Shown: one piece after another, positions 22,246 through 40,548 of the stretch
Position numbering within the stretch: position 1 is the stretch's first letter
Layout: every line of letters starts with the position of its first letter
From: a bacterium
GTDB lineage: Bacteria > Patescibacteriota > Minisyncoccia > Phycocordibacterales > DATDWN01
DNA: 64,000 nucleotides
Direction: 5' to 3'
NCBI GenBank assembly: GCA_037134875.1
Contig: JBAXLH010000001.1
Coordinates: forward strand, 106,646-170,645
The notes under the pieces: model-generated
The model's input: only the letters and a program-made list of their open reading frames with translations
Told to the model about the DNA's origin: nothing
Databases searched by the model: none
Translations under genes and position numbers: made by a program

Positions 22246-23661
22246 ATGCGAACTCCGCGTCACGAATCTTTTATCGAAATCAATTCGACACTCTTTCATA
22301 TTATCCAGCTAGTTTATAACCCCATGATTAAAAACAGTCTAAAGATTGAGTACGTTCCTATCGACTCACTCCATCACGTGGAATACAACCCACGTATTAT
22401 CAACGAAACTACGAAAGCATCAGTACGCGCGAGTATTGAGATGCACGGTATACAAGACCCCCTCATCATCAACCGTGCCCCCGAACGCAAGGGCGGTATT
22501 ATCGGCGGCAACCTCCGCTACGAGGTCATGAAGGATCTCGGCTTCACCGAAGTGCCCGTTATTTTTGTCGACATTCCAGAACTCGAACGAGAGAAAGATC
22601 TGTGCTTGCGTCTCAATAAGGCCGTCGGAGAGTGGGACCTCATCTTACTCGCCGAATTCGATGAGTCCTTCCTAACCAATGTAGGCTTCAACAGCGAGGA
22701 GATTGATGAAATATTTCCGGTCGACGAGACTCCGACTGAGTTCTCGCTCAAGCACGAACTTGAAAAGATAGGTATAGACGGTGTGACCGTAAAGAAAGGC
22801 GACCTATACGATCTCGATGGCTCCCGGCTCTATGTCGGCGATTCAACCGTCGAGTCAGACATGCTCGCCCTCTTTGGTGAGCACAAAGCAGATATGTGTA
22901 TGACCGACCCGCCGTACGATCTTGCATACCTCCACGGTAAAAAGCGTAACGGCAAAGCGACCGAAGGGTTCGGGCTCAAGCGTGATCGTAAGTATCTCGA
23001 AACCGATGAGTTGCCGGATGACTTTACGGATTTGTGGATGGCCAATGTCGCTAAAATTCAAAAGCCCGACTTCTCGATTATTGTCTACGAAGCTCCGAAG
23101 AACCTGCGCACCATTTGGAACGCGCTCGAGGCTCACTGGAAGTACCGCAACACGATAGTCTGGACGATTCCGAATCGTGTGCAAGGATTTTCAGCCAAGC
23201 TCAAGTTCTTCAATAAGCACGACATCGCTGTTGTAGGGACTTCGGGTGAGGTCGCGCTCCATACCGAGCCGGAAGACAACTTGCTATTCCAAAACGAATA
23301 TGAGACAGCTCTGTTTGCCACCTCAGGTAGGCCGCATTGGGAGTCGTATGGAAAAGACAAGCGATACTGTCCGACCGATGTTATTGACCACGTAGCTGCC
23401 GATGAAAAAGCATCAGGGCAAGGCATCATCTTTGGAGTGAAGCCGCTCCCTATACTCATCCCGTACATTAAGGTGCTGACCAAGCGTGGTGACATCGTTG
23501 TTGAACCCTTTGGAGGAAGCGGGTCGACCCTCATCGCCTCAAACACTATCGGTCGTCGCTGCTTCATTATGGAGAAGGTGCCGACCTATGCTGAGGTCAT
23601 TCTGAACCGCTGGGAGAAGTTCTCGGGCAAGAAGCGGGTAAAGATCCATGCACAAGCGTGA
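22246..23661 (+). CDS. ParB-like nuclease domain / DNA methyltransferase (N4/N6, DPPY) fusion
   Basis: N-terminal ParB domain (IEYVPIDSL...GGNLRYEVM). Methyltransferase motif IV DPPY (MTDPPYDLAY) and motif I FGGSGST. Confidence 0.8.
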   Translation: MRTPRHESFIEINSTLFHIIQLVYNPMIKNSLKIEYVPIDSLHHVEYNPRIINETTKASVRASIEMHGIQDPLIINRAPERKGGIIGGNLRYEVMKDLGFTEVPVIFVDIPELEREKDLCLRLNKAVGEWDLILLAEFDESFLTNVGFNSEEIDEIFPVDETPTEFSLKHELEKIGIDGVTVKKGDLYDLDGSRLYVGDSTVESDMLALFGEHKADMCMTDPPYDLAYLHGKKRNGKATEGFGLKRDRKYLETDELPDDFTDLWMANVAKIQKPDFSIIVYEAPKNLRTIWNALEAHWKYRNTIVWTIPNRVQGFSAKLKFFNKHDIAVVGTSGEVALHTEPEDNLLFQNEYETALFATSGRPHWESYGKDKRYCPTDVIDHVAADEKASGQGIIFGVKPLPILIPYIKVLTKRGDIVVEPFGGSGSTLIASNTIGRRCFIMEKVPTYAEVILNRWEKFSGKKRVKIHAQA

Positions 23662-24801: not shown

Positions 24802-25395
24802 CTACTTTGAGAGAGATTGAATATCTGCGCGAGCCTTTGTGATATCGTCAGTGACCTTCTGCTCATCTGCACGTAACTTAGTAGTTGTTACTTCTTTGAT
24901 CTGCCAACTAACTGCGTCGCCAGCCCAGAGACAGATATCGCTTGCCGCGTTATTGATATCCTCATTCCAATTACCGAGCGCATCGGGTGAAGTGCCGGAG
25001 TATAAGTTATCGGCTTCTTGATAGGCACTCATTGCGTTAGTGCCCGGATCATTCTTGAGGCAGGTATTGGTGCGGAATGAACCGAGCTGGCTTGCGGCCG
25101 AACTTGGATCGTTAAGCGCTTTCAGACCTGCGTTCGCATCTGCGTACTGCGTTGTGCCGAGCACAGTCTTGGCAGAGCTTAATAACGACACGTAGTGGTC
25201 GGTGCTTGCCGAAAGAATTGCAGCAACCTTTTGCTTATCTGGAGCAGACGATGTCGCGACTACTACAGGATTTTGCACGGGCGCACTTTCCTGTGCCTGC
25301 TTGATAGGCTGCGGCGTATTTAGACCAATTATAAGTAACAAAACAAAACCGAGAACAACTACTCCGACAACGGAGTAGAGAACTTTTTTAGCCAT
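24802..25395 (-). CDS. hypothetical secreted/membrane-anchored protein
   Basis: N-terminal TM helix VLYSVVGVVVLGFVLLLIIGL. GC-rich island cargo. Confidence 0.45.
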   Translation of the reverse strand: MAKKVLYSVVGVVVLGFVLLLIIGLNTPQPIKQAQESAPVQNPVVVATSSAPDKQKVAAILSASTDHYVSLLSSAKTVLGTTQYADANAGLKALNDPSSAASQLGSFRTNTCLKNDPGTNAMSAYQEADNLYSGTSPDALGNWNEDINNAASDICLWAGDAVSWQIKEVTTTKLRADEQKVTDDITKARADIQSLSK

Positions 25396-25560
25396 AAAAT
25401 CTAGCGGGATTTTAGATGGTGGGAACCCTCAGGTAATCAAAAGGCTCCTCGCCATTGCGATGAGAACCTTTCGGCCCCCACCCATACCGGTTTCCCGATA
25501 TGACCCGCTAGAGTGACTCTGACGAGGAGTCCTTTGATCTCTAGCGGGATTTGCAACCAT
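25396..25560 (-). promoter_or_regulatory. candidate structured 5' leader with triplicated 9-nt motif (mutually exclusive helices)
   Basis: tctagcggg at 25400-25408 and 25540-25548; its complement cccgctaga at 25505-25513. GC-rich nested helices between (ggtggg/cccacc, gggaacc/ggtttccc). The proximal motif abuts the start codon at 25395. Confidence 0.3.
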
Positions 25561-25698
25561 ATCCTAAGAATTTGACTTCCTAGGGGTTAGGTCGGCTTAT
25601 ATTCAATTGTGCAAGTACATGATAGCAGAAATTGCTATCGTTTGACCACCTTAGCTTAGCTTTGAGAGCTTGCAAAGTAGGTTATCTACTCCTCAATT

Positions 25699-26268
25699 TT
25701 AATGAAAAGTGACACCGCTCTTTTTGAGCTCATTACGTACCTCAGCATAGTTCGGAATAGTCTGTGATACGAGTTTCCAAAACTTCTTTGAATGATTAAA
25801 TTCTTTTAGGTGGCAGAGCTCGTGGACAATTATGTAATCAGATAGAGGCTTTGGTAAAAGTGCGATTTTATAGTTGAAATTAAGGTTACCTTTTCGAGAA
25901 CAGCTACCCCAACGCGTCTTCTGATTTTTGATATTGATCCGATTGAAATTAAACTCCCGTTTCTGATTGAAGTAGTTAACTCGATTTACTGCCAGTTTAT
26001 ATGCCTCGTCTTTGTACTTGAGGTAGTCCTCTTGGCTATACCTCGCAATTGCCTTACCCTTGAACTGCTTGAAAAAAGCAATTTTTGAGAAAAGCCATTC
26101 ACTTTTCTCATTAATGAATTTGTCGACAATGGTTTCTTTGAGATCAAAAGGGGTCGTGACCACAATGCTCCCATCACAGTACACAGCAAGGCGCATTCTT
26201 CGTGCCCGATGACTTTTTCGGAGAGTATAGGTAACTTGTTTATTTTCAAGTGCTATATGTTTCTTCAT
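25699..26268 (-). CDS. YgjP-like (DUF45) metal-dependent hydrolase
   Basis: WGSC...HELCHLKEFNHSKKFW (HExxH in DUF45 context). Immediately downstream of hsdR. Confidence 0.7.
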   Translation of the reverse strand: MKKHIALENKQVTYTLRKSHRARRMRLAVYCDGSIVVTTPFDLKETIVDKFINEKSEWLFSKIAFFKQFKGKAIARYSQEDYLKYKDEAYKLAVNRVNYFNQKREFNFNRINIKNQKTRWGSCSRKGNLNFNYKIALLPKPLSDYIIVHELCHLKEFNHSKKFWKLVSQTIPNYAEVRNELKKSGVTFH

Positions 26269-26270
26269 GG

Positions 26271-29177
26271 TTAGAATTTTTTGACCACAATATCGACCAG
26301 ACGGTTGAGATATTTATGAAAGTCGTCAACCTTAATTTTTTCTCTATATTCTTTAAGTACCAACTCTTGAACAATGCGCTTTACTTCTTTCAAGAATTCA
26401 TCACGTTTCGAGGACTCTTGCCAACCCTCATCGAGCACATCCTCAAGTCGTGCTGTCATATCCTTTATGAAGTCCCTGATCACGTCTTTATCTCCCGTGA
26501 TAAATTCCTCAGAGATAACAAACAGGCCATATTCATTGAGGGAATACCCGAGCTCCTTAGCCTCGTCTCCTTTTTTCTTTATATCTTCAAGAAGCCCTTG
26601 GTATCGCTTGATACGTTCCGATAAATCAATTTGATTTTGTTCAAACTCTTTCCTGATTGCTGAAAGTCGTTCACTAAACTTTTTATACGCAGGATTAGTA
26701 TCGACATTTATAGAGATTTCCTGCTTAAGCATTTTCTCAAGATTGAGAGCTTTCTCCTCATCATCCATCTTATTAAGACGCTCCATAACGTAAAGGTCGT
26801 TGACATTAAGCTCACGGAAATTCTTAGTGATGCCTTCGTAGTCCACACGTTGCTGGATAAGAAGTTTAACTTTCTCGCCAAACTCAGCAAGAAGTTCTGC
26901 ATCAGTTGTTCTCGCTCCGTATTCTTTGTCAAACGCAATATAAACACTGGCAAGCCACTCAAATGCTCGGATATGTGTTTTCAGGAAGGGGTCTGGCGAG
27001 AGTACCTCAAACAAAAGCTTAAGACGGGCATATTTTTCACGGAAAAACTTCTGCTTGTCTGTATTCTCCGCAAAAATCTTCAAACAGCGGCGCAGGTTTT
27101 CAATTGAAGGATCTTCAATATTTACACCCACGAATACATCCATAATTTCGTCAAGTACGTCGACGAATTCTTCTTTGAGTTTATCGATATTGATCATCGC
27201 AGAATCAACCACACTCTCGTCAAAATTGAGTGCCTTGTGAAGACTCTTGGTAATGCCGTAATAGTCAATTACTTTTCCAGCACCCTTGTTTGGATACACG
27301 CGGTTTGTGCGTGCGATTGCTTGTAGAAGATTATGATCCCAAAGCGGCTTGTCGAGGTACATCACCTGTTCAATTGGGGCATCAAAGCCAGTGAGAAGCA
27401 TGTCGCAGACAAGCAAGAATTTGAGCGGACTATTTGGATCCTTGAATTCATTTATGAGCTTTTCTCGCTTAGCTTTAGTCGTATTGTATTTCTGAAGGTC
27501 CTCAGCACTTGTGTTGGGATCGCCAGCAGAATAGATAACCGCAGACCACTCTTTCGGAATTAACTCATCCAGTATTTCTTTGTATTTTGCCGTCGCTTCA
27601 CGGTCATAGCAGACAACTTGAGCCTTGAAACCAGCAGGCTCTACATAAAGCTTAAAGTGCTCGACTATATCTTGAGCAACAGCACGCATACGCTTATCGA
27701 GTTTAACGATTGCTTCTTTCTTTCCATATTTCTTTGCAACTTGATCCTTCTCTTTATCTGAGAGTCCTTGGGTCAATTCTTCAAACTGCTTGTCTATTTT
27801 CTCCTCATCAATAAAGAATTTTGAGAGTCTAGCCTCATAGGTAACAGGGAGTGTGGCTCCGTCTTCTACGGCTTGCTGAATAGAATAATAATCCAAGTAA
27901 CGTTCGCCCTCCTCGCCGAAGTTACGATGAGTATTAAGTGTTGCCTTATCGATAGGAGTACCGGTAAAGCCAAAGAAGAACGCGTTCTTTAAGGAACTGC
28001 GGAGATTAATTGCCGAAACGCCTTCATTATCTCTATGTGCCTCGTCTGAAAGTACGATAATGTTCTCGTCGAGGTTTTCTGTTGTATTTCCAAGTTCAGA
28101 GAATTTCTGGATTGTAGAAATGAAGATTCCTCTCTCGGAAGACTTTATCTTCTTCTCAAGATCTTGACGCGAATCCACACGAACGACGTTCTTGCCACCA
28201 CAATTTACGAAAGTCTCGTAAATCTGATCATCAAGATCTATACGATCCACTAAGATAAAAATCTTTGGGTTTTTGAGCGCCTTATCAAAGCGTAGCTTCC
28301 AAGCCGTAAAGAACATGGTGAGCGATTTGCCCGACCCTTGAGTATGCCAAATGAGCCCACGCTTCTGGTCACCTCCAGCAACTCGCTCAACAATCTTGTT
28401 TGTTGCTCTAAGTTGCTGGTATCGTGCAATTTTCTTTACAGTGCGCTCCTTTTCTTTTTCAAAAAGAATAAAATTCCTGACTATATCGAGAAGCCTCTCT
28501 TTTGAGAGTAGGGCTGTAAGCGTCATTTCCAACTCTCCCCCTGTTTGTTTTTGAAGCTCTTCATCACGCCAACGTAGAAAGTACTGCGCAGGTGCGTAAG
28601 TAGCTCCGTAGACGGTTTGAAGGCCATCTGTAGCTATGTTGAAGCAGTTAGGCCAAAACAATTTAAAAGCATTTCGCTCATATCGCTTTATCTGTCCAAC
28701 AGCATTGGAATAGTTCACGCTGCTTGCTGCAGTAGGGCTCTTTGCCTCTATATCTACCAAAGGCAAACCATTCAGGAAGACCATTATGTCTGGGCGGATA
28801 TTCTCGGAGTTTCCCTCGAAGTAGAACTGATTGGTAGCGACAAACTGGTTGTTATCGGTTGTCTCAAAATCAACGACGTAGTAGTCGCGCATCTTGCCAG
28901 TCTGAGAATCTTTCAAGTTCACACCATCACGAAGCATTTTAAGAAATGCCTCGTTATTATCTATTTTCTTCACCTCTCGGACAATAGAAATAGCCTCATC
29001 TTCCTGTATTCCGTTAATTCGCTTAACGGCCTCAAGAAGTAGCGGAGTGATAATGTATTCGTTCTCAAACTCACGGAGCTTCGAAAACTCCTGCGATTTG
29101 ATGTATTTGTAACCAAGCTTCTCCTGGAGAAACTTAATGACGTGATTTTCTACTGTGTGTTGTTCGTTGAATTTCAT
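26271..29177 (-). CDS. hsdR: Type I restriction enzyme R subunit
   Basis: 968 aa. SF2 helicase motifs including the DEAH box (VLSDEAHRDNEG). N-terminal nuclease region. Confidence 0.9.
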   Translation of the reverse strand: MKFNEQHTVENHVIKFLQEKLGYKYIKSQEFSKLREFENEYIITPLLLEAVKRINGIQEDEAISIVREVKKIDNNEAFLKMLRDGVNLKDSQTGKMRDYYVVDFETTDNNQFVATNQFYFEGNSENIRPDIMVFLNGLPLVDIEAKSPTAASSVNYSNAVGQIKRYERNAFKLFWPNCFNIATDGLQTVYGATYAPAQYFLRWRDEELQKQTGGELEMTLTALLSKERLLDIVRNFILFEKEKERTVKKIARYQQLRATNKIVERVAGGDQKRGLIWHTQGSGKSLTMFFTAWKLRFDKALKNPKIFILVDRIDLDDQIYETFVNCGGKNVVRVDSRQDLEKKIKSSERGIFISTIQKFSELGNTTENLDENIIVLSDEAHRDNEGVSAINLRSSLKNAFFFGFTGTPIDKATLNTHRNFGEEGERYLDYYSIQQAVEDGATLPVTYEARLSKFFIDEEKIDKQFEELTQGLSDKEKDQVAKKYGKKEAIVKLDKRMRAVAQDIVEHFKLYVEPAGFKAQVVCYDREATAKYKEILDELIPKEWSAVIYSAGDPNTSAEDLQKYNTTKAKREKLINEFKDPNSPLKFLLVCDMLLTGFDAPIEQVMYLDKPLWDHNLLQAIARTNRVYPNKGAGKVIDYYGITKSLHKALNFDESVVDSAMINIDKLKEEFVDVLDEIMDVFVGVNIEDPSIENLRRCLKIFAENTDKQKFFREKYARLKLLFEVLSPDPFLKTHIRAFEWLASVYIAFDKEYGARTTDAELLAEFGEKVKLLIQQRVDYEGITKNFRELNVNDLYVMERLNKMDDEEKALNLEKMLKQEISINVDTNPAYKKFSERLSAIRKEFEQNQIDLSERIKRYQGLLEDIKKKGDEAKELGYSLNEYGLFVISEEFITGDKDVIRDFIKDMTARLEDVLDEGWQESSKRDEFLKEVKRIVQELVLKEYREKIKVDDFHKYLNRLVDIVVKKF

Positions 29178-30409
29178 ATGGTTCTTTTCTTACCGGTCAG
29201 TAGATCTTGCATGAGGCCTTTTTTGAGAAGAGATAATTTTGATTTCAGTTCCTGATTAGTCGCAATCCTTTCTTCAATCGAAGAAAGGATGCTAGCAATT
29301 TTTTTCTGCTCCTGTATGGACGGAACAGGGACTTTATAACTTTTCATATAAGAAAGATTCAAGTGTGAGATATGCCCCTGAATTCCACCACTACGCAGTA
29401 ATTCATATTGGCTTTTCAAAAAAAGCCATAGATACTCGGAATCAATTTCTGTATTCGGTTCAATAGCAGCGGCGTTTTGTGTTGTGCATGCCTCGATTTT
29501 AAGGAGTGCAGTCTGTCCCCGTGTCTTTCCTTGACCATACATTGCAACAAGGATCGTTCCTGGCTGATATCTTTTTAGCCGATAGTCCTGAACTGCTTTA
29601 TCAGAAATATGCACCTCTGCCCGTTCAATTTTCTTATTTACAATCTCTCCCGTTTTGATAAAAGGATTATTGCCTTCGTAATACTCTTTTTTGCCTGTAG
29701 ACGGCGTGGTGCCGGTTGAGATAGTAGCTAGTTCTTCTAAATTTCTAAAAACAAATTTGGTTTTACCTGTTCCACTAGTAAAGAGATCTTTCATTAGCCC
29801 GCGCTTGAGTTTATCTGTCGCTTCAATAACTTCCTGTGTTTTTGCAATATCCTTATCAACTGTTCCCAAAATCTCTGCAATTTTCTGCTGTTCTTTTTTT
29901 GATTCCGGAATCAAGACTTGAATGGATTCAAATTTGCCTTTTGAAATAGTGTAGCGCGTTGCACCAACAGACGCTTTTTCAAATTGTCTAAGTACATCTC
30001 TAGCATTACAAAAATACGCTCGAAAATTAATGTCGATCTTATTGTCGTACTCCTCGTTAAATCTCAGTCGCGCCAAATGATAACTAAAGAGAGTATTCGG
30101 CAAATCCTTAGCCACTACAGCTGAGTGGCCAATATCATCAGGCGTTTCAGAAGAGGGGGTGAATAACATATCTCCAACCCTGACCTGTGCTACCTTAATT
30201 TCACTATCGCTGGCAGTCACTTCCATAAAATTAATGGAGTCATCAATAAATCCATGCTTGTAGACATCCATGTAGTTAACGAGCCTCACAGGCTTTTCGT
30301 CCCGCGCTATCTTTTTATCCACTCCACCGGTCTTAAACTCTCCCAAATCTGAAAGGTTTTTTATAACCCAACCACGCGGAATATTCTGTTGTTTCGTGTT
30401 AGTTGTCAT
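29174..30409 (-). CDS. hsdS: Type I R-M specificity subunit (two target-recognition domains)
   Basis: 411 aa, duplicated TRD architecture with conserved central/C-terminal helices. 4-nt overlap with hsdR. Confidence 0.8.
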   Translation of the reverse strand: MTTNTKQQNIPRGWVIKNLSDLGEFKTGGVDKKIARDEKPVRLVNYMDVYKHGFIDDSINFMEVTASDSEIKVAQVRVGDMLFTPSSETPDDIGHSAVVAKDLPNTLFSYHLARLRFNEEYDNKIDINFRAYFCNARDVLRQFEKASVGATRYTISKGKFESIQVLIPESKKEQQKIAEILGTVDKDIAKTQEVIEATDKLKRGLMKDLFTSGTGKTKFVFRNLEELATISTGTTPSTGKKEYYEGNNPFIKTGEIVNKKIERAEVHISDKAVQDYRLKRYQPGTILVAMYGQGKTRGQTALLKIEACTTQNAAAIEPNTEIDSEYLWLFLKSQYELLRSGGIQGHISHLNLSYMKSYKVPVPSIQEQKKIASILSSIEERIATNQELKSKLSLLKKGLMQDLLTGKKRTI

Positions 30410-31229
30410 CTCGTTTTTCTACGGCAATTTCTTGCTGAATTTGCTGCAATTGTTTTTTGACCATCGCGTCCTTTTCATTCTTTTTTGCTTCTTCTATTTT
30501 CTGATCGAGAATCAATTCAATAGAGAGTTTGATAGGCGCAAAATATCGTAAACATTCTTCTTCAGTTAATTCGTGTACACCCTTGCTCAAAATAGAGTAG
30601 ACACCTTTCATTTCCACAAGTTGGCTAGGGAGAAAAGTTTTCAATGTCTCAACCTTATCCAGCATTCTTTGTTTTTTGAAATCGATTTCGCTTATTTTAG
30701 TAGCGCCAGCATTGTTCGTGTATGTTTCAAGAATTAATTTCTCAAAAATCCTTCTGAGATAAACAAAAGAGCCGGCACCAGCCCCATGGGAAACCAGTCC
30801 AATTGCCTTTTTGAGATTTTTTAGGTCCTCAACTGGCAAAACCTTGTCATACTTCTTACCAATCTCTGCGAACTGTAAATCTGCTAACGATGGCCATTGT
30901 CCTATCTTCATGACGATTTCTCTATTTCGAAAAACTATAAAGCGTATTACATCGTTATCCTTCCGCTTACACTTCAAGGTAATGAGAAAGAACCCAACAT
31001 CAACACTATTACCTTTTTCTGCTGACCAATCGCTCCATGTATCGGTTGAATCAATGCTGATGGAATAGGTCGTTTCCGTACTATTCTTTGCGCTATACGC
31101 ATCCACGTCACCGCCGAAGGCATTTTTTTCTAGCTCACTAATTGACACAACCTCGTATAAAGGAGTTTCAAAATAGAAATCGTGTTTGCTCATTATTTTA
31201 GCCTCTCCCAACTGTAGTTCGTTAGCCAT
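30399..31229 (-). CDS. hypothetical protein embedded between hsdM and hsdS
   Basis: 276-aa ORF overlapping hsdS by 11 nt. No catalytic motif recognised. C-terminal half helical (VSHGAGAGSFVYLRRIFEKLI...). Confidence 0.5.
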   Translation of the reverse strand: MANELQLGEAKIMSKHDFYFETPLYEVVSISELEKNAFGGDVDAYSAKNSTETTYSISIDSTDTWSDWSAEKGNSVDVGFFLITLKCKRKDNDVIRFIVFRNREIVMKIGQWPSLADLQFAEIGKKYDKVLPVEDLKNLKKAIGLVSHGAGAGSFVYLRRIFEKLILETYTNNAGATKISEIDFKKQRMLDKVETLKTFLPSQLVEMKGVYSILSKGVHELTEEECLRYFAPIKLSIELILDQKIEEAKKNEKDAMVKKQLQQIQQEIAVEKRDDN

Positions 31230-31233
31230 AAAT

Positions 31234-32979
31234 TTAATACTTCAATTCCTTTAGATACCCTTCGACCTTTGTATCAATTGCCGTACGCTCCTTTTCGAGA
31301 GTAGCTAACTCCTTGCGTACAGCAGACACATCAATAATTTCCTCTTTATCACCGTTCTCAATGTAGCGGCGAACGTTGAGGTTGTACTCATTCGTTTCTA
31401 TCTCCTTCAGGTCAACGACGCGGGCATAACCATCAATATCCTTAAAACCATCGTAAGTTTTAACAATTTTCTGAATGTCCTGATAACGGAGCGAATTCTG
31501 ATTCTTACCCTCAGAGAAGTCCTTCTCGGCATCTACGATCAACACTTTACCTTTGTGACCTCCCGCCTTGTTCTTGTTGAAAATGATAATGGCCGCTGGA
31601 ATGCCCGTGCCGTAGAAGAGCTTTGACGGAAGTGCAATCACAGCTTCGATGAGGTCATTCTTAAGTATTTGTTCCCGAATACGGCCTTCGGAACCACCTC
31701 GGAAGAGGACACCGTGCGGGAGCACAATACCGGCACGGCCATTAGAGTTCATCGACTTGATGATGTGGAGCACAAAGGCGTAGTCAGCGTTTTTGTTTGG
31801 TGGCAGTTCGTACCCGTCGATGCGACCGTATTTATCGGACTTGAACATCTCGTACTCCCAGTCGTTGATTGAGTAGGGTGGGTTTGCAACGCAAATATCA
31901 AATGTCTTGAGACTACCGTTTGGGTTCAAAAACTGCGGGTTCGCGAGTGTGTCGCCCCGCTGAATGTCGGCGCTATCAAGTCCGTGGAGAAACATGTTGA
32001 TCTTGGCGATCGCATAAGTGCCAATATTAATCTCCTGGCCATAAAGATAGAGCGTGCGCGCAATCTGCTCGCCCTCTTTCTCTTTCAGATGATGAAAAGC
32101 CTCCAAAAGGAATCCGCCTGAGCCGACCGTGGGGTCGTAAATATGATCTTTCTTGTGTGGCTTAAGTATCTGTATGATGACGCGTTCAACTTCACGCGGT
32201 GTATAAAACTCACCGCCTTTCTTTCCGGCGTCAGCCGCAAACTGTTTGATGAGGTATTCGTACGCATCGCCAAGGACATCGGAGTTGATGTATGTGTCGC
32301 CAAAGTTGTATTGAGAGAAGTGGTTGATGAGGCGCTGAGTCGTTTCGTTCGGGAAGCGGTCCTTGTTGGCAAAGTCGAGGTCATCAAAAATCCTGTCGAG
32401 CTTCGGACTATTGGCGTTGGCAAGCTTTTCAAAAATCTCATTGAGTTTCTTGCCGATGTTTTCTGCTTTTTCCTCAACAACCGACCAACGACACTCCTTC
32501 GGCACCTGAAAGCGATGGTTGTAGTCGGCGCGAGCGATCGTTTCGTCTTTGAACTCTTCCATTACCTTCGCGTACTCTTCATCCCAGACGTCGCTGATGC
32601 GTTTGAAAAAGAGAAGGCCAAAGATGTACTTCTTGTAGTCAGAACTGTCGATTTTGCCGCGGAGAATATCCGCACTCTTCCAGAGGAACTGCTCGAGCTG
32701 TGGAAGAGTGAGCTTGCTACCCATCTTGTCGACTATTGCTCGTATATCTTCAGGGCGATATTTACGATCCCCGCGTTTACCGGCACGCATGGGTACTAAA
32801 ATGCCCTCCTTTTCCCAGTTACGGAGGGTGTCTGGATGGATATTAAAGATTTCAGCGACCTGTCCTATTGAAAGGAGGTCGGGCATTTCTTTGAGTTTTG
32901 CTTGTATATCTTTGCGCATATTGTTAAGTACTATCCTATCGCGGGCTAAATATAATGTCAAGCGTTCATAGGTTATCAT
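31234..32979 (-). CDS. hsdM: Type I R-M methyltransferase subunit with N-terminal MerR/excisionase-type HTH extension
   Basis: N6-adenine methyltransferase motifs (NPPY: VANPPYS) and HsdM N-domain. The first ~75 aa (LLSIGQVAEIFNIHPDTLRNWEKEGILVP...KYRPEDI) match a MerR/HTH_17-like domain. Confidence 0.85.
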   Translation of the reverse strand: MITYERLTLYLARDRIVLNNMRKDIQAKLKEMPDLLSIGQVAEIFNIHPDTLRNWEKEGILVPMRAGKRGDRKYRPEDIRAIVDKMGSKLTLPQLEQFLWKSADILRGKIDSSDYKKYIFGLLFFKRISDVWDEEYAKVMEEFKDETIARADYNHRFQVPKECRWSVVEEKAENIGKKLNEIFEKLANANSPKLDRIFDDLDFANKDRFPNETTQRLINHFSQYNFGDTYINSDVLGDAYEYLIKQFAADAGKKGGEFYTPREVERVIIQILKPHKKDHIYDPTVGSGGFLLEAFHHLKEKEGEQIARTLYLYGQEINIGTYAIAKINMFLHGLDSADIQRGDTLANPQFLNPNGSLKTFDICVANPPYSINDWEYEMFKSDKYGRIDGYELPPNKNADYAFVLHIIKSMNSNGRAGIVLPHGVLFRGGSEGRIREQILKNDLIEAVIALPSKLFYGTGIPAAIIIFNKNKAGGHKGKVLIVDAEKDFSEGKNQNSLRYQDIQKIVKTYDGFKDIDGYARVVDLKEIETNEYNLNVRRYIENGDKEEIIDVSAVRKELATLEKERTAIDTKVEGYLKELKY

Positions 32980-33067
32980 AGGTCTAAACCTTAGCTTGCT
33001 ATGTAAAATAAGGGTAATTTGGCTATCAACAGGTGTCCTGGACTCCCTAGAGCCTTTACGTCATTGA

Positions 33068-34360
33068 TTGATGTATATGGAAACAAAGCAATTGGAGGCC
33101 CTCCGGTACTGCCTCTACGCACGCAAAAGTACCGAAGCAGAGGATAAACAGGCCCTTTCAATAGAGTCGCAGGTAAAGGAGATGCAAGTGCTCGCCGAGC
33201 GGGACGGGCTCCATATCGTAGAGATAAAGCGAGAGTCACACTCCTCCAAGGAGGTAGGCCAGCGGCCGGTATATAACCAGATGCTCGAGGACCTACGCTC
33301 ACAGAAGTTCAATGCAATACTCACATGGGCTCCGGATCGGTTGAGCCGCAATGCCGGAGACTTGGGGTCGGTCGTAGACCTCATGGACCAGAAGCTGCTG
33401 CATGAGATACGCACCTACGGGCAGAAGTTTACCAACAACCCGAATGAGAAGTTTTTGCTGATGATACTCGGGAGCCAAGCGAAACTTGAGAACGATAACA
33501 AGGCGGTGAATGTTAAGCGTGGATTGCGCACACGATGCGAGATGGGGTGGAGGCCCGGCGTTGCACCAACCGGATACTTAAACGAAAAGCACGTTGATAA
33601 AAAGTGCCAATGTAGGGTTGATCCAAAGCGCGGACCGGTCATCAAACAGATGTTTGAAAAAGTAGCCAATGAACAGTGGAGTGGGCGCAAGCTATATCGC
33701 TGGTTGAGAGAAATCGACTTCAAGACGCATCGCGGCAAGCCGTTGGTGCTGGCGAATGTGTACATAATTTTGCGAAACCCTTTTTATTACGGCGACTTTG
33801 AATACCCGGTCGGTGGAGGCAAGTGGTACACAGGCAAGCACACGCCAATCATTGATAAGGAGTTGTATACAAAAGTGCAAATGACACTGAACGCGAACTT
33901 TATACCCAAAACTGAGAGTAAAGAGTTTGCCTTTACCAAGCTCATACGATGCGGACACTGCGGCTCGGGCATATCCGCAGATGAGAAGTTCAAGAAGTTA
34001 AAAGACGGCGGTGTAAACAGGCACGTGTACTACTTCTGCACCAAGGCTCGGAATATAGACTGCAAGAATCCGGCCATAAATGAGCCGGGTCTGATCGAGG
34101 AGCTTATAGGTCTCATGGATAAGGTCAACATGGACGAACTAGGCATACGAACCCGGATAGAGGATGAAATAAAACGGTTTAACAAATTTAGGTCAGGCGT
34201 ACTTGGACACAAGCAAGACAAAATAGAGATCGACGTAGATGTAAGAAATTACACCAAGTACCTATTGAGAGAAGGGACGCTTATAGAGAAGCGCGAACTG
34301 CTCGGATGCCTTCAAAGCAAACTATTTCTGAATGACAAAAAAATCAGAATGGATAATTAA
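33068..34360 (+). CDS. large serine recombinase (integrase) 1
   Basis: Resolvase catalytic domain (YCLYARKSTEAED...SIESQ), recombinase domain and zinc ribbon (CGHCGS...YYFC). Confidence 0.85.
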   Translation: MMYMETKQLEALRYCLYARKSTEAEDKQALSIESQVKEMQVLAERDGLHIVEIKRESHSSKEVGQRPVYNQMLEDLRSQKFNAILTWAPDRLSRNAGDLGSVVDLMDQKLLHEIRTYGQKFTNNPNEKFLLMILGSQAKLENDNKAVNVKRGLRTRCEMGWRPGVAPTGYLNEKHVDKKCQCRVDPKRGPVIKQMFEKVANEQWSGRKLYRWLREIDFKTHRGKPLVLANVYIILRNPFYYGDFEYPVGGGKWYTGKHTPIIDKELYTKVQMTLNANFIPKTESKEFAFTKLIRCGHCGSGISADEKFKKLKDGGVNRHVYYFCTKARNIDCKNPAINEPGLIEELIGLMDKVNMDELGIRTRIEDEIKRFNKFRSGVLGHKQDKIEIDVDVRNYTKYLLREGTLIEKRELLGCLQSKLFLNDKKIRMDN

Positions 34361-35309
34361 TTGCAGTCCAATCGAGCACCAGAGGGTTGGGTTTTCCTGA
34401 ATTAGAATCTAACTCAAACTTAGGAATATAAAATTCCTTTTCATACTTCTCAAAACCAGTCGTAACAATCTTGAATATATTCCTAATGAGGGGGCTCTTC
34501 TGGTCAAAAAATCCAGTGCCAAAGTTAAGTCCGAATTGCGCATGGAACATTACTACCGCAGCGCCAACTGCGTAGACTGCATTTTCCAAAGTCGCGAACT
34601 TTAGATTTTCCTCTCGGTCGTGTTTAGTCTTGTTATAGGAGTCATACCAATTCAATGATGTCGTTGGATTACTAACATCCCACCCCTTAAAAGGTGCAAA
34701 AGCTGGGAAGTTCGGATATGACTGCAAAGATAGTTCGTATCCGTCTAAAAGCATCGGGTGATGCAGTTTTACATAGTCATTGGTAGTTAACCTCGGTGAG
34801 GAATACGTATTCTCTTTTAAGACCGCCGTCCACGATGACTCAACTTCCATAGATGCCAGTAGAATGATCTCCCTGATTTTGTGACCATAGACTGATAAAT
34901 TATCCTTGTTTGGTTCAATGGTTTCAAAGAGATATTCCAATTTGCCGAGCAATATACGCAGTGAGACAAAAGACTCATTTAATTTTTCTTGATAGGCAAT
35001 ATTAAATGGACGCCCTCCACATGCAAGAGGCCTCCACATTCTTTTGTAATAAGTGCCAAGGACGTAACTTGATTCAACCGGTTCGCTGTCACCAAAACTC
35101 TTTGTAACCCAATCTTTAATGTCGGTGAAGGTTGTATTTGGAACTTTAACGAAATGTACCTCACCTCCATGATTAACTCCCGAGGCAAAGAGGACACCCT
35201 GACCCTCGAAAGCAACTCCGCTCTCGTGGTGAAAAAAGAAGTCTTGATCAAAATTTGGTCCTTGTTTCCCATTAGGGAAAAATTTGTTTTGAAAAAATAA
35301 TATCTTCAT
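34344..35309 (-). CDS. hypothetical protein (unknown function) abutting repeat A
   Basis: ORF from MKILFFQNKFF. No motif. The upstream region is the 202-bp repeat A. Confidence 0.4.
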   Translation of the reverse strand: MKILFFQNKFFPNGKQGPNFDQDFFFHHESGVAFEGQGVLFASGVNHGGEVHFVKVPNTTFTDIKDWVTKSFGDSEPVESSYVLGTYYKRMWRPLACGGRPFNIAYQEKLNESFVSLRILLGKLEYLFETIEPNKDNLSVYGHKIREIILLASMEVESSWTAVLKENTYSSPRLTTNDYVKLHHPMLLDGYELSLQSYPNFPAFAPFKGWDVSNPTTSLNWYDSYNKTKHDREENLKFATLENAVYAVGAAVVMFHAQFGLNFGTGFFDQKSPLIRNIFKIVTTGFEKYEKEFYIPKFELDSNSGKPNPLVLDWTAINYPF

Positions 35310-35351
35310 AATCTGCGACCGACGTGTCTCAGTCACCTGACTTAGTATATG

Positions 35352-35553
35352 TTGGCTGTGTCTCCTGAACAAAATCCGAACTTTTTTCCAAACTAATCCG
35401 ACTGAGGATTAATCTGCGCGCCTCGCCCGCTCCCTTCGGTCGCGGGAGCAAAAACCAAAAATTTTCCTTACCTTTCTTATTTTCTTCGGCGGGGGGTGTG
35501 GGGGGAGCCGACAAAAAATGGAAAGGAAATTTTTGGTTTTGCTTCGCCGCTAC
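35352..35553. repeat. inverted repeat A (202 bp), left copy
   Basis: Near-identical inverted copy at 38588-38789. Outer end is ttggctg. Confidence 0.85.
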
Positions 35554-35819
35554 AGACTACGAAATGAACATTTACATTATATCATTTGTGGTTCTTTGGA
35601 GTTGTTCATTTCTCCGTCCTTGCGGCGATACGAGGCGCTTCCTCTCCGCGTTTGGTGATAGCTTGAAACTTTGTGCCTCCGACCGAGTTTAGTGGTACCT
35701 CACAAAGCGGATTGTGCTTGGCACAAACAAATCTTATTGTGCTTGCCCCGCCCGCCCTGTGCGCGCACAAATCCCCGCCGTTTTTAGGAAATATTATAAA
35801 ACGGCGGGGATTGCCTCCC

Positions 35820-36686
35820 TTATGCCGACTCAAATGCTTTTTTGAAAGCTGGTTCTTGCATAGCGGCATGGCTCGCGCCATACACGACAAAAACTCGCTT
35901 GTGAGTTTTGAATGCTTCAAGAATATCTCCAACAATTTTTTTATCTCTAAAAAGCGACGAGGCTTCGCCAATTCGATTCAAAATTGTTTGTTTTTCTTTT
36001 TTCTCGTCCCACGGTATCGGGTCAATCCGATCAAGTGCATTTGGGTCATTTTCAACATCTACAGCTTCGCCGAAAATCTGCTCGCCAAGTTTTATAGCGC
36101 GTTCGTATGAGTAATCGAAACCTTCCCAATTAGTTGTTCGTTTGAATCGGTCAATAAATCCAGAAACATATTTTTCAAATCCCTCTCGTTTCATTTGTCG
36201 ATTATATTGCGGAAGAATGTGGAAAACATCCCATGCAAATATTTGGTCTTTTGAAAATCCTTTGGCGAGCAAGTCGTTATACAAATCCTCGTCGGTTGGT
36301 TCGGGAGATTCCCAGTCAATTCCTTTTTCAACTCCTAATTTCAATGTAAGACCTGACTCGCCCATACGGTCAATTGCTTCCTCGCGTGTGGCAGATTTTA
36401 CTCTCTCATTAAATTTTGTTTTATCTCCGCGAACATTCATACCCTCGACAAAAACAATATCAGGATTCGCTTTATTGAAAGCGGCCTCAATTTCTGCGAA
36501 TAGAGGATTACTTGGGTCGCTTGTGTGAGGCGAGCCGAAGTAATAAAGTTCTTTATCTCCCGCTTTCAATTCAAAAACATATGGTGTTGCGTGTTCAATT
36601 TTGCTGTATTCCTCGGCAGTCATTATGCTACTCAAAACTGATTCTGTCGTTTCGGATTTATTTTTTGGTTGTTCAAATGTTTCCAT
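35820..36686 (-). CDS. TraB/GumN-family protein
   Basis: YYFGSPHTSDP and VYGASHAAM resemble TraB/GumN signatures. Inside the inverted-repeat-flanked cassette. Confidence 0.5.
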   Translation of the reverse strand: METFEQPKNKSETTESVLSSIMTAEEYSKIEHATPYVFELKAGDKELYYFGSPHTSDPSNPLFAEIEAAFNKANPDIVFVEGMNVRGDKTKFNERVKSATREEAIDRMGESGLTLKLGVEKGIDWESPEPTDEDLYNDLLAKGFSKDQIFAWDVFHILPQYNRQMKREGFEKYVSGFIDRFKRTTNWEGFDYSYERAIKLGEQIFGEAVDVENDPNALDRIDPIPWDEKKEKQTILNRIGEASSLFRDKKIVGDILEAFKTHKRVFVVYGASHAAMQEPAFKKAFESA

Positions 36687-36688
36687 AA

Positions 36689-37447
36689 TTATTTTTTGGA
36701 AACATAATCAATTATCTTGTCCCAATCGAGGTTATCTTTTGTATAAAAAAGGTCAATGACATCTTTTGTCATTTCGTTGATTTTCTTTACATAAAGTTGT
36801 TTAAAACTATCGTCTCGTTTCTTAGCTTCCTTATCCAGTGGTTGAATGATTTTTTTATACAATTCGTTATCGCCAGAGATAAGTTCCCAAAAAGCTTGTC
36901 CGCAAATTTTGTAATAACTAAGGTCGGGGTCTTTATTCACCTTATGTGGAACATTGTCTCGTCCATAAATACAGCCGTTTACAGAAACAATACTATTTTT
37001 ATTGAGTTCGGCACGAAGTAACTTTTTAGCAATTTTCAAGTTTCTTTTCAATGTATTTACTTGGTCAGAATTTCCCCAGTTTGGTCCGGATTTAATACCA
37101 ACGATATAGGTTTTTTCATCTCGATCAAAAATTAAATCAACGCTACGATATTTCCCTTCCTCCGCTTTTTTGCCCTTAAATACTTCGTGGCAAACATGGA
37201 TAGCCAGATTTTCCATCAAATCGCCGAAAATTGTTTCCTCTTGTGATGACAAAAAAGCGTCAAGAATACTTTTTGCCAAATCTCCTGCGGTCTCGATGTT
37301 CTTGGCCTTAAATAAGTAAGGATTTTTTCGTTTTGAAATATAAGAAAGTTTTGCCGATTCAAGTCGAGCAAGCCGTATTTCATAAAATGGTTTTATAACA
37401 TCAGAAGCGATAAAGGTATTTAGTTTTTCGTAGTTTAGTTTTTTCAT
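36689..37447 (-). CDS. putative Type II restriction endonuclease (PD-(D/E)xK)
   Basis: Position immediately downstream of C-protein and methyltransferase. Candidate D...D/ExK (SVDLIFDRDEKTYIVGIK). Confidence 0.5.
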   Translation of the reverse strand: MKKLNYEKLNTFIASDVIKPFYEIRLARLESAKLSYISKRKNPYLFKAKNIETAGDLAKSILDAFLSSQEETIFGDLMENLAIHVCHEVFKGKKAEEGKYRSVDLIFDRDEKTYIVGIKSGPNWGNSDQVNTLKRNLKIAKKLLRAELNKNSIVSVNGCIYGRDNVPHKVNKDPDLSYYKICGQAFWELISGDNELYKKIIQPLDKEAKKRDDSFKQLYVKKINEMTKDVIDLFYTKDNLDWDKIIDYVSKK

Positions 37448-37448
37448 A

Positions 37449-38315
37449 TTATTTCGTTTGCTCGTTAATATTTTCGACAGCCAGTTTGTGATATTCCTCC
37501 TGTATTTCAATACCTATTGAATTACGGTCAAGCTGAAAAGCGGCAATAGAAGTCGTGCCGGAACCCAAAAATGGGTCTAGAACGACGTCTCCGGGTTTTG
37601 TAAAAAGTTTAATAAACCAACTCGGTAGTTCTTTGGGAAAGACTGCACTATGTTTTTTGTTGGAACTTTCGGTCGCCATTGAAAGTACATTTGTAGGATA
37701 AGCTAAATCGCGACCTACCCAATTTGATACATTTTTTCCAAAACCGCTACCAACTTTTGAGTTATCTCGTTGCTTATCAGTTTCGCTAAGATTTTTCAAA
37801 CGAGTTTTTGCCCAATCTCCCATGGGGACTCTTACCTCATCTTGATACATATTAAAATCTTTTGATTTATTGAATTGCAAAAGTCGTTCCCAAGAATCAC
37901 GAAAACGGTTAGGCCACTTGCCCGGAAAGCAATTTTTTTTGTGCCAAATAAATTCTTCTGTCCAAAGCCAGCCCTGTTTTCGCATTGCGATAATTAGCTC
38001 CATGACATAGGTATGACGCTCACCATTTGCAACTTTTTCTTTAATATTCAAAACGAACGTTCCTTTTGGATGTAAAACTCGTAATAATTCTGCCGTCATA
38101 GGCAAAAACCATTCAACATATTTATCAGGACTAATTCCGCCGTAAGTGCTTTTCCTTTGGTCTGCGTAAGGTGGTGATGTGACGATAAGATCGACGGAAT
38201 TTTCTGGCAAACTTTTTAAAACATCAAGACAGTCGCCAAGAATAACATCCGCTTTTACTTTGGCTTTTGTCTTTGCATTAAACAAGTCAATTTTTTCTAT
38301 AGTGTTAATTGTCAT
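37449..38315 (-). CDS. Type II DNA methyltransferase (N4-C/N6-A, beta class)
   Basis: SPPY motif (LIVTSPPYAD) and motif I FLGSGTT. Confidence 0.85.
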   Translation of the reverse strand: MTINTIEKIDLFNAKTKAKVKADVILGDCLDVLKSLPENSVDLIVTSPPYADQRKSTYGGISPDKYVEWFLPMTAELLRVLHPKGTFVLNIKEKVANGERHTYVMELIIAMRKQGWLWTEEFIWHKKNCFPGKWPNRFRDSWERLLQFNKSKDFNMYQDEVRVPMGDWAKTRLKNLSETDKQRDNSKVGSGFGKNVSNWVGRDLAYPTNVLSMATESSNKKHSAVFPKELPSWFIKLFTKPGDVVLDPFLGSGTTSIAAFQLDRNSIGIEIQEEYHKLAVENINEQTK

Positions 38316-38320
38316 AAAAT

Positions 38321-38527
38321 TTATTTCAGCAATTCATCTGTTGAAACGCTAAGTGCTTTTGCAATATTGGAAATGGTAGAAAGAGTTGGATTTGTTTTGC
38401 CATTTTCGATATTGCTCACAAAACTTCGGCTAACGCCGAGTGTTCGCACAATATCGCCTTGTGTAATGCCTTTTTCTGTTCTGATTCGCTTTAGGTTTTT
38501 ACCCAACTTTGCAGACTCGCTTTTCAT
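38321..38527 (-). CDS. controller (C) protein, XRE-family HTH
   Basis: LGKNLKRIRTEKGITQGDIVRTLGVSRSFVSNIENGK. First gene of the C-M-R operon. Confidence 0.75.
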   Translation of the reverse strand: MKSESAKLGKNLKRIRTEKGITQGDIVRTLGVSRSFVSNIENGKTNPTLSTISNIAKALSVSTDELLK

Positions 38528-38587
38528 ATCCACAAGTATACCACTTCCAATTACATTATACACCAATATTATAGTATAATGTAATAG

Positions 38588-38789
38588 GTAGCGGCGAAGC
38601 AAAACCAAAAATTTCCTTTCCATTTTTTGTCGGCTCCCCCCACACCCCCCGCCGAAGAAAATAAGAAAGGTAAGGAAAATTTTTGGTTTTTGCTCCCGCG
38701 ACCGAAGGGAGCGGGCGAGGCGCGCAGATTAATCCTCAGTCGGATTAGTTTGGAAAAAAGTTCGGATTTTGTTCAGGAGACACAGCCAA
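38588..38789. repeat. inverted repeat A' (right copy)
   Basis: Reverse complement of 35352-35553. Confidence 0.85.
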
Positions 38790-38914
38790 GTTTCGGAATT
38801 CGTTTTTTCGCCAAAATTCGGAGCGTCGCAAAGCGACGCGACTGGGGTTTCCGCCAGAATTCGCCAAGGGTTTTTGAAATCCAAAAGAAGCGAGCGGGAC
38901 GCGAGGCGGGGGTT
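38783..38914. repeat. inverted repeat B (left copy), abuts A' sharing cagccaa
   Basis: Reverse complement matches 40349-40480. Confidence 0.8.
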
Positions 38915-40537: not shown

Positions 40538-40548
40538 ATGATCCCGCA
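40475..40548 (-). tRNA. tRNA-Gln (anticodon CUG)
   Basis: Cloverleaf read by hand. Acceptor UGCGGGA/UCCCGCA, D-arm with GG, anticodon stem CGCGA/UCGUG, loop CUCUGAA, T-arm CUUGG-UUCGAAU-CCAAG. CCA encoded. Confidence 0.8.

Follow-up and report, generated by a model that had tools for sequence, protein, structure and literature searches.

Control of Type I restriction-modification (R-M) systems is thought to be mainly post-translational, for example through ClpXP-dependent restriction alleviation. Among Type II systems, N-terminal helix-turn-helix (HTH) domains of methylases autoregulate via an operator in the intergenic region of the restriction and modification genes (PMC3978073, PMC2760811; review PMC12707154). 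The MerR-like protein BldC of Streptomyces lacks a coiled coil and forms head-to-tail multimers on direct repeats (PMC5859096). We analysed a Type I R-M operon within 64,000 nucleotides (nt) of DNA from a member of the Patescibacteriota (lineage DATDWN01; GenBank assembly GCA_037134875.1, contig JBAXLH010000001.1, positions 106,646 to 170,645 of the forward strand). This whole stretch is called the window, and all coordinates are positions in it; L-numbers denote related loci and P-numbers proteins. An earlier note on this DNA had pointed out two non-canonical features of the operon, an HTH fused to the methylase HsdM and a gene for a 276-amino-acid (276-aa) protein inserted between hsdM and hsdS. 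Judged by their homologues, both features are genuine and conserved, and neither is an artefact. We propose, with moderate confidence in the account as a whole, that the operon belongs to a mobile cassette, that its methylase would autoregulate the hsd genes, and that the inserted gene would encode a HEPN-like effector, one of a set of interchangeable cargos. The functions proposed here were read from sequence and predicted structure.

Several described systems resemble the inserted gene or the cassette. RAZR (PD-T7-4) combines a zinc finger with a DUF4145-HEPN RNase and is activated by assembly on phage portal-like rings (PMC13017515). PrrC of EcoprrI, an anticodon nuclease, is encoded in a Type IC locus, and BxaP is a DUF4145 abortive-infection protein associated with bacteriophage exclusion (BREX) systems (PMC10799925). 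HEPN nucleases are defined by a catalytic His at the junction of helices 3 and 4 and an acidic residue in helix 2; some HEPN families keep the conserved His but lack the Arg, and some are non-catalytic (PMC3710099). Staphylococcal cassette chromosome (SCC) elements with Type I R-M genes link a large serine recombinase to a mobile R-M unit (PMC11470126). Classical immune systems are described as scarce in Patescibacteria (PMC12455944).

The operon runs on the minus strand in the order HTH-hsdM, 276-aa gene, hsdS, hsdR and ygjP, with gaps or overlaps of at most 11 nt between neighbours, and a large serine recombinase gene diverges from it, just as had been described. The mechanically defined open reading frame (ORF) of hsdM (31234-32979, minus strand) encodes 581 residues, and a MerR-like winged HTH occupies residues 35-84 (32728..32877, minus strand). 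In Pfam this domain matched MerR_1 (E=1e-11, residues 37-81), MerR (E=5e-9) and HTH_17 (E=2e-7, residues 35-84), in agreement with the family first proposed for it. The NCBIfam matches were BldC, HspR and the N-terminal domain of the IS607 transposase. Matches among PDB sequences included BrlR (2e-6), BldC (6amk/6ama, 8e-6 and 2e-5), phage Xis and the winged HTHs of terminase small subunits. The same uninterrupted frame continued into HsdM_N (PF12161, E=5e-27, residues 95-217) and N6_Mtase (PF02384, E=6e-110, residues 233-547). The protein scored 273 bits against TIGR00497 hsdM (cutoff 242.75), and its translation shows the AdoMet motif as DPTVGSGGF and the NPPY motif as NPPYS. Since canonical HsdM profiles aligned only from residue 88-95, the HTH is an add-on to HsdM.

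All of the 120 best homologues (78-94% identity) carried MerR, HsdM_N and N6_Mtase in one protein. They came from many independent Patescibacteria assemblies, from the archaeon Methanoregula and from a Cytophagaceae bin, and thus from several phyla. No missed stop codon or frameshift splits off the HTH, and the continuous frame together with the 120 fused homologues ruled out an artificial fusion. The fusion is therefore real and kept in homologous operons; only its placement in about 75 residues counted from M1 has to be revised, as the protein most likely begins at M21. Among 403 plasmid records with an HsdM_N match (72,556 plasmids searched), none aligned the fused HTH, so the HTH is a clade-specific addition. 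Only one plasmid record, Rhizobium etli pRsp8C3a (L135, 6022-8616), covered the whole HsdM query. On this plasmid the HTH, of the excisionase type, has its own 62-aa gene, whose end lies one base ahead of an 801-aa hsdM. Orthology of the two HTHs was rejected because their BLASTP comparison was not significant, and the arrangement is taken to be analogous only. Apart from these, several HTH-HsdM proteins of 745-804 aa also contained a Methylase_S domain and were followed directly by hsdR, resembling HsdM-HsdS fusions (L077, L083, L096, L123, L125, L127, L129 and L132; proteins P0186, P0193 and P0225).

The HTH differs from classical MerR regulators. These possess, besides the N-terminal winged HTH, a coiled-coil dimerisation helix and an effector-binding domain, and they act at a palindromic operator within a promoter of over-long (19-20 bp) spacer. 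The winged HTH is present in HsdM, and the other two elements are absent: the MerR_1 match spans profile positions 2-45 of 69, and HsdM_N already starts at residue 95. The promoter of hsdM has a 17-nt spacer, and a tandem direct repeat lies upstream of its -35. By sequence, the closest small relatives of the HTH are BldC-type proteins, which share the MerR-like winged HTH of BldC and Xis without coiled coil or effector domain (similarity to 6amk/6ama, E about 1e-5). BldC is a free 68-residue global developmental regulator, whereas the HTH studied here is attached to a methylase and apparently has a single site in 64 kb.

The DNA of the first 20 codons of the 581-aa frame reads ACCTATGATAACCTATGAAC-GC-TTGACA-17 nt-TAGGAT-13 nt-ATG and contains what appears to be the promoter of the operon. 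The candidate operator, a direct repeat in tandem, has a period of 10 bp (32965..32983, minus strand; ACCTATGAT-A-ACCTATGAA) and can be written as ACCTATGA-N2-ACCTATGA. It is the sole copy in the window. The predicted hsdM promoter (32933..32961, minus strand) consists of a TTGACA -35 (32961-32956), the 17-nt spacer and a TAGGAT -10 (32938-32933). It was the best sigma-70-type match in the region 25300-33300, agreeing at 10 of 12 positions. The ATG of M21, which opens the sequence MRKDIQ, lies at 32919, 13 nt downstream of the -10. This spacing implies a near-leaderless hsdM mRNA with a leader of about 6-7 nt.

The same arrangement recurred upstream of related genes. Of the 62 unique upstream sequences from HTH-hsdM loci, 53 contained the tandem repeat, and in 40 of these 53 it ended 4 nt before a TTGACW -35. 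Related loci also shared the 17-nt spacer and a -10 of TAGACT, TAGGAT or TAGAAT, with the ATG following 13 nt on in 38. The repeat sites had zero entropy across these loci, and their flanks were variable. Upstream of M21 the entropy was 0.76, 0.61 and 0.94 bits at codon positions 1, 2 and 3, showing no codon periodicity, and the invariant blocks fell on the repeat, the -35 and the -10. Downstream of M21 it was 0.3, 0.2 and 1.1 bits, with the strong third-position periodicity of a coding region. Homologue N-termini converged on MRKDIQ; further upstream they showed either MKTYEHLTLYL... or unrelated sequence. In the distant loci L001, L002 and L010, stop codons interrupt the 20-codon frame, and a CCTATGAA half-site, a TTGACA or TTGACG -35, a TAACAT -10 and an HTH with DTLRNWEK are all retained.

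The first 20 residues of the 581-aa frame are thus almost certainly not translated, and the probable coding sequence is 31234..32919, encoding 561 aa from M21. Translation from the first ATG was rejected on the convergence of the N-termini, the stops in distant loci, the overlap with the promoter and the entropy profile. Two observations weigh against these conclusions on start and promoter. The 20-codon upstream frame was open in 37 of 42 loci of standard geometry, more than we had guessed from chance; we gave this little weight because the loci are phylogenetically related. The related loci were also 75-97% identical in the HsdM N-terminus, so that part of the promoter conservation reflects shared ancestry.

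The operon and the divergent recombinase gene would together form a mobile Type I R-M cassette of ~8.7 kb (about 25.7-34.4 kb). The recombinase gene (33068..34360, plus strand) encodes Resolvase, Recombinase and Zn_ribbon_recom domains. Upstream sequence of 1.6 kb or more was available for 55 metagenomic HTH-hsdM loci. In 39 of them, a homologue of this recombinase lay within 1 kb upstream of hsdM, divergently oriented in 35. The genetic linkage is therefore real, and the recombinase is the probable mobility gene of the cassette. The flanking ORFs in the window (342, 197 and 298 aa) had no homologues in any related locus, which suggests that the conserved mobile unit comprises the recombinase and hsdM through ygjP. 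Comparisons of nucleotide similarity and flanking-gene conservation did not reveal the exact ends of the element or its attachment (att) sites. The cassette resembles SCC elements in linking a large serine recombinase to a Type I R-M unit. It differs in its recombinase and HsdM lineages, in the much smaller size of the units and in its hosts, which are mainly Patescibacteria together with an archaeon and Bacteroidota.

Autoregulation of the hsd operon is the likeliest role of the HsdM HTH. In the mechanism that we propose, the BldC/Xis-type HTH would bind the tandem repeat abutting the -35 of its own promoter, and the methylase would feed back on transcription of the whole operon. An M2S1 complex would offer two HTHs for the two repeats. 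We infer DNA binding, and either repression or activation, from the domain, the repeat and the promoter, which can be read directly from the DNA; a repeat abutting the -35 would fit occlusion as well as recruitment. That the fusion might couple modification to transcriptional control had already been suggested, and the conserved tandem repeat 4 nt upstream of the hsdM -35 makes this the best-supported reading. The arrangement has much in common with the regulatory Type II methylases of the M.SsoII, M.Ecl18kI and M.EcoRII class. In both, an HTH of ~70 residues is fused N-terminally via a short linker, and a candidate operator in the promoter region between divergent genes predicts feedback on the R-M system. 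In HsdM, however, the HTH is MerR/BldC-like and attached to a Type I subunit (M2S1 or R2M2S1), and the divergent gene encodes a recombinase instead of a nuclease. Its conserved candidate site lies upstream of the -35 as a direct repeat in tandem, and the regulatory role of HsdM is a prediction. The regulatory principle is already known, and the HsdM fusion presents it in a new variant with a candidate operator and a corrected start codon. In the literature searched we found no description of an HsdM-borne regulator of Type I systems.

Two other roles for the HTH were weighed against autoregulation. The HTH could be a mere extra DNA anchor or a non-functional passenger, with the repeat acting as an UP-like or other promoter element for another factor. 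Promoter strength alone could account for conservation among closely related loci. The fusion, the DTLRNWEK recognition helix and the CCTATGAA half-site are nonetheless co-conserved down to ~60% identity within otherwise unrelated upstream DNA. Two repeats at a 10-bp period fit the head-to-tail binding of BldC (PMC5859096), and the lack of the HTH in the plasmid-borne HsdM proteins marks it as a specific addition to this clade. We therefore consider the anchor or passenger role unlikely. It is more improbable still that the HTH serves the recombinase as an excisionase-like directionality or regulatory factor tying R-M establishment to cassette mobility, an idea also raised earlier: the linkage, the position of the repeat in the intergenic region shared with the divergent recombinases (35) and the similarity of the HTH to HTH_17/excisionase, IS607 and Xis domains speak for it, but the repeat keeps its fixed 4-nt distance from the hsdM -35, stays beside hsdM even next to unrelated upstream DNA, a tRNA gene or DNA without a recombinase (e.g. 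L061, L069, L078, L094, L109 and L123), and has only one copy in the window instead of marking the two ends of the element. Directionality factors known for large serine recombinases, moreover, bind to the recombinase itself, not to DNA repeats, and the att sites of these enzymes are inverted and imperfect repeats, not tandem ones.

The 276-aa gene (30399..31229, minus strand) follows hsdM after a gap of 4 nt and overlaps hsdS by 11 nt. Its product belongs to a large family, with 1,849 homologues at E<=1e-3 and 2,369 representative clusters at 50% identity. The protein matched no Pfam, NCBIfam or PADLOC entry even at E=10, and 25 diverse relatives matched no Pfam or PADLOC family; all 25 matched phrog_25239, a PHROG of unknown function. 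A profile search of the family against PDB returned nothing at E<=10, and a Foldseek search of the predicted structure against PDB gave nothing significant. Several alternative identities were rejected. A derivation from half of an HsdS was contradicted by the absence of any Methylase_S match at E=10 and of any phmmer cross-match to HsdS. Decay of the gene was contradicted by 49 invariant columns in an alignment of 41 homologues, which were 56-87% identical to the window protein. Neither of the two origins that might have explained the insert away therefore applies. Several GenBank and RefSeq records label the family as short-chain dehydrogenase, which looks like a propagated misannotation, as neither the window protein nor the 25 relatives matched the adh_short Rossmann family. 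Membership of DUF4145, RAZR or another PADLOC system was likewise rejected in the Pfam, NCBIfam and PADLOC scans and by hhalign, which was also run against two single DUF4145 proteins. In particular, PF13643 was not matched by the window protein (E=10) or the 25 relatives (E<=0.1), and there was no PADLOC PD-T7-4 match, so the suggestion of a DUF4145-like insert did not hold.

The predicted structure was more informative. The AlphaFold2 model (predicted local distance difference test score, pLDDT, 85) comprises an N-terminal antiparallel β domain (about residues 40-112; about 30894-31193, minus strand), a conserved linker with the motif KxGQxPSLAD, and a helical C-terminal domain (about 30405-30887, minus strand) that ends in a 50-residue helix. 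The C-terminal half is HEPN-like in the model, with a four-helix up-down bundle and an insert between helices 2 and 3. The invariant H219 lies at the junction of helices 3 and 4. The acidic residue expected in helix 2 is provided by the invariant E163 within R159-R160-x-x-E163. An invariant stripe of four-residue spacing, Y211-S215-H219-E223, faces R159, R160 and E163. In the N domain, most of the distant relatives carry C46, C49, C87 and H93, a likely zinc site, where the window clade has S, N, C and D instead. The absence of a recognisable motif, noted earlier, thus remains true at the sequence level, while the predicted fold of the C-terminal half can be assigned. The inserted gene is a member of a large HEPN-like family that is uncharacterised and whose motif is non-canonical.

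Among known systems, RAZR is the one whose overall layout the 276-aa protein resembles. No sequence or profile similarity connects the two, however. Tyr replaces the catalytic Arg, the N-terminal Cys4 zinc ribbon of RAZR is lacking, and the window protein no longer has the zinc ligands. The N domain forms a larger β sheet without a PDB neighbour, and there is an added C-terminal helix of ~50 residues. Since the comparison with RAZR-like DUF4145 profiles was negative, the protein may work like RAZR without being a member of that group. PrrC offers a parallel in context: in both cases a Type I hsd operon houses an accessory gene of HEPN type, which may serve as second-line defence. PrrC, though, combines a canonical Rx4-6H motif with an ATP-binding cassette (ABC) ATPase domain at its N-terminus, and its function depends on the R-M complex, with obligate Type I linkage. 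The 276-aa protein has no ATPase domain, and about 40 of 48 loci of its mostly stand-alone family are without hsd genes. BxaP and other DUF4145/HEPN genes of R-M operons (PMC3710099) are likewise HEPN-like accessories in a restriction or defence operon, but these are recognisable DUF4145 members and the 276-aa family is not.

The slot occupied by the gene is used for cargo in sister operons. In about 85 loci (surveyed among L054-L133 and L001-L023), the hsdM-hsdS and hsdS-hsdR junctions held 121 other ORFs in 76 clusters. Pfam matches included ThsB_TIR, SduA_C (Shedu), AAA_21/AbiEii, DUF3800, SMODS, Cap15 and DUF4145, as well as NYN, Bro-N, RhuM, AAA_13, Abi_alpha and AbiJ_NTD4; many clusters had no Pfam match. 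Cargo types were mostly confined to one slot. One cargo in the same slot as the 276-aa gene (L104:3522-4148) was RAZR-like; the Arg and His of its R..GN...H motif are R146 and H154, and the reported catalytic pair of RAZR bears identical numbers. No integron-like or att-like repeats were found at the cargo junctions, which consisted of ordinary TAA-N(1-4)-ATG or overlapping stop and start codons. With 121 ORFs in 76 clusters, defence families among them, the slots suggest that the 276-aa gene is one of many interchangeable defence cargos. The proposal of an anti-phage accessory module is plausible for the insert, because sister operons keep known defence genes in the same slot.

The 276-aa gene is mostly found outside such operons. 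Only 8 of 48 species-level genome loci had it in a Type I operon; their HsdM proteins fall into two clades, of which one has the HTH and the other lacks it. In these 8 and in 3 metagenomic operons, the gene stood between hsdM and hsdS wherever hsdS was also seen, and none had it in the hsdS-hsdR slot. Just 3 of 80 HTH-hsdM loci carried it, and the insert is not specific to this type of operon. The remaining genome copies were solitary, and no recurrent partner gene emerged among 121 neighbours of stand-alone copies. On a 9.7-kb Pelagovum plasmid, a family copy lies between rep and sieB, beside brnTA. As a separate observation, three neighbouring proteins matched DUF5906/Pox_D5 primase-helicase families. 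From ORF size and position, these are taken to be the ~620-aa genes beside the Firmicutes copies L031, L032 and L035 (Oceanobacillus, Jeotgalibacillus and Bacillus). Such neighbours would suggest prophage- or satellite-like islands.

The predicted fold, the conservation and the context point to a defence function and perhaps to RNase activity. We picture a self-sufficient two-domain protein: some cue from the phage would be sensed by the N domain, and the HEPN-like domain would then bring the cell to a halt, through RNA damage or by other means. Its most likely role, if RAZR, BxaP and PrrC are a guide, would be that of an abortive-infection-type effector. The most economical reading is a stand-alone effector of this type that benefits from riding in an R-M operon.

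Several findings count against a defence effector. The Arg of the Rx4-6H motif is missing: positions 212-214 are never basic, and the invariant Y211 precedes H219 by eight residues. This state is comparable to that of the HEPN families that have the conserved His and no Arg (PMC3710099). In hhalign, A2 and A1 reached probabilities of only 1.3% and 0.1% against a 40-sequence RAZR-like DUF4145 alignment, although both alignments were of low diversity and a very remote relationship may exist. No PADLOC model matches the family, and stand-alone homologues mostly have housekeeping or heterogeneous neighbours. The protein, whether HEPN-like or helical in another way, might accordingly lack catalytic activity and serve outside defence, for instance in nucleotide or ligand binding or Patescibacteria housekeeping; non-catalytic HEPN families have precedent (PMC3710099). 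Yet the family is patchily spread over many phyla, plasmids and a phage protein family, and it recurs inside R-M operons in a slot elsewhere filled by known defence genes. The invariant Y211/S215/H219/E223 and R159/R160/E163 also look like an active or binding site. We regard a non-defence role as a real possibility, if a doubtful one. We give less credence to a PrrC-style guard, which HsdMSR would keep inactive until the enzyme is disabled by an anti-restriction protein of the phage. The close junctions with hsdM and hsdS would allow translational coupling, the hsdM-hsdS slot is occupied in all 11 Type I operons that have the gene where hsdS was seen, across both HsdM clades, and PrrC itself provides a precedent (PMC3710099, PMC12707154). 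However, about 40 of 48 species-level loci, as well as homologues of ~70% identity, are stand-alone without R-M genes nearby, and the ABC ATPase domain is missing. Because most homologues stand alone, the protein must be able to work, and to be kept in check, without HsdMSR.

If HsdM does autoregulate, Type I systems would have their first described case of transcriptional feedback. Such reading of the promoter by its own product would also explain safe establishment in new hosts, which is relevant for an element that hops between phyla. The 276-aa family, with more than 2,000 clusters at 50% identity, is unannotated or mislabelled and offers a candidate HEPN-like immune effector with an unusual active site. 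The cargos of the slots amount to a compact, naturally curated list of candidate new Patescibacteria defence genes. A broader picture can be put forward only tentatively, and we would not expect all of it to hold. The cassette may be a self-contained defence carrier, moved by its recombinase, with a methylase that senses its own level via a BldC-like HTH on the tandem operator and a hot-swappable slot for second-line effectors. The 276-aa family would then be a new single-gene family of abortive-infection HEPN-like nucleases, with a Tyr/Ser/His and Arg-Arg/Glu site and a sensor fold unseen in PDB.

The rest of the operon is that of a regular Type I system, combining HsdM_N and a gamma-class N6-adenine methylase with a two-domain HsdS and an HsdR that has a nuclease N-domain and a superfamily 2 (SF2) motor. 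HsdS and HsdR are encoded in one operon with HsdM, and start and stop codons overlap within it. The hsdS gene (29174..30409, minus strand) encodes 411 aa with two target-recognition domains; two stretches matched Methylase_S (E=1.5e-35), and PADLOC identified Specificity_I. The hsdR gene (26271..29177, minus strand; 968 aa) contains HSDR_N, SWI2_SNF2, ResIII, T1R_D3-like and T1RH-like_C domains and matched PADLOC REase_I (E=2e-143). The last gene (25699..26268, minus strand; 189 aa) encodes a YgjP-like (DUF45) protein of the HEXXH metallopeptidase fold (PF01863, E=1.4e-44), bearing out its earlier identification as the end of the operon. A YgjP-like gene was also kept 3' of hsdR in L001, L002, L007, L010, L012, L023, L077 and L106.

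The surroundings of the cassette contain further features of mobile DNA. A 342-aa ORF (34344-35372, minus strand) overlaps the 3' end of the recombinase gene and had no Pfam, NCBIfam or PADLOC match and no homologue in related loci. Beyond it, a 209-nt inverted repeat (35352-35560 and 38581-38789), 99% complementary, brackets a 3-kb segment, and each arm contains its own 28-nt inverted repeat. Judged by reading translations, the segment holds a probable Type II R-M unit, with a methylase-like ORF (37449-38315), an ORF at 36689-37510, a small HTH ORF (38321-38623) and a 288-aa ORF (35820-36686). The segment between the arms may be invertible or mobile, or the repeat may be an assembly effect. 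A perfect 132-nt inverted repeat (38783-38914 and 40349-40480) flanks a second serine recombinase gene (38999-40537), whose ORF extends into the distal arm and overlaps a tRNA-Gln gene of the other strand (40475-40548). On the other side of the cassette, a 471-aa ORF (22246-23661) reads by eye like a fusion of ParB-N and a DNA methylase. In L002, L075, L117 and L127, DNA resembling the window at ~22.9-23.6 kb occurs again close to related R-M cassettes, and it may represent a second mobile module travelling with these cassettes.

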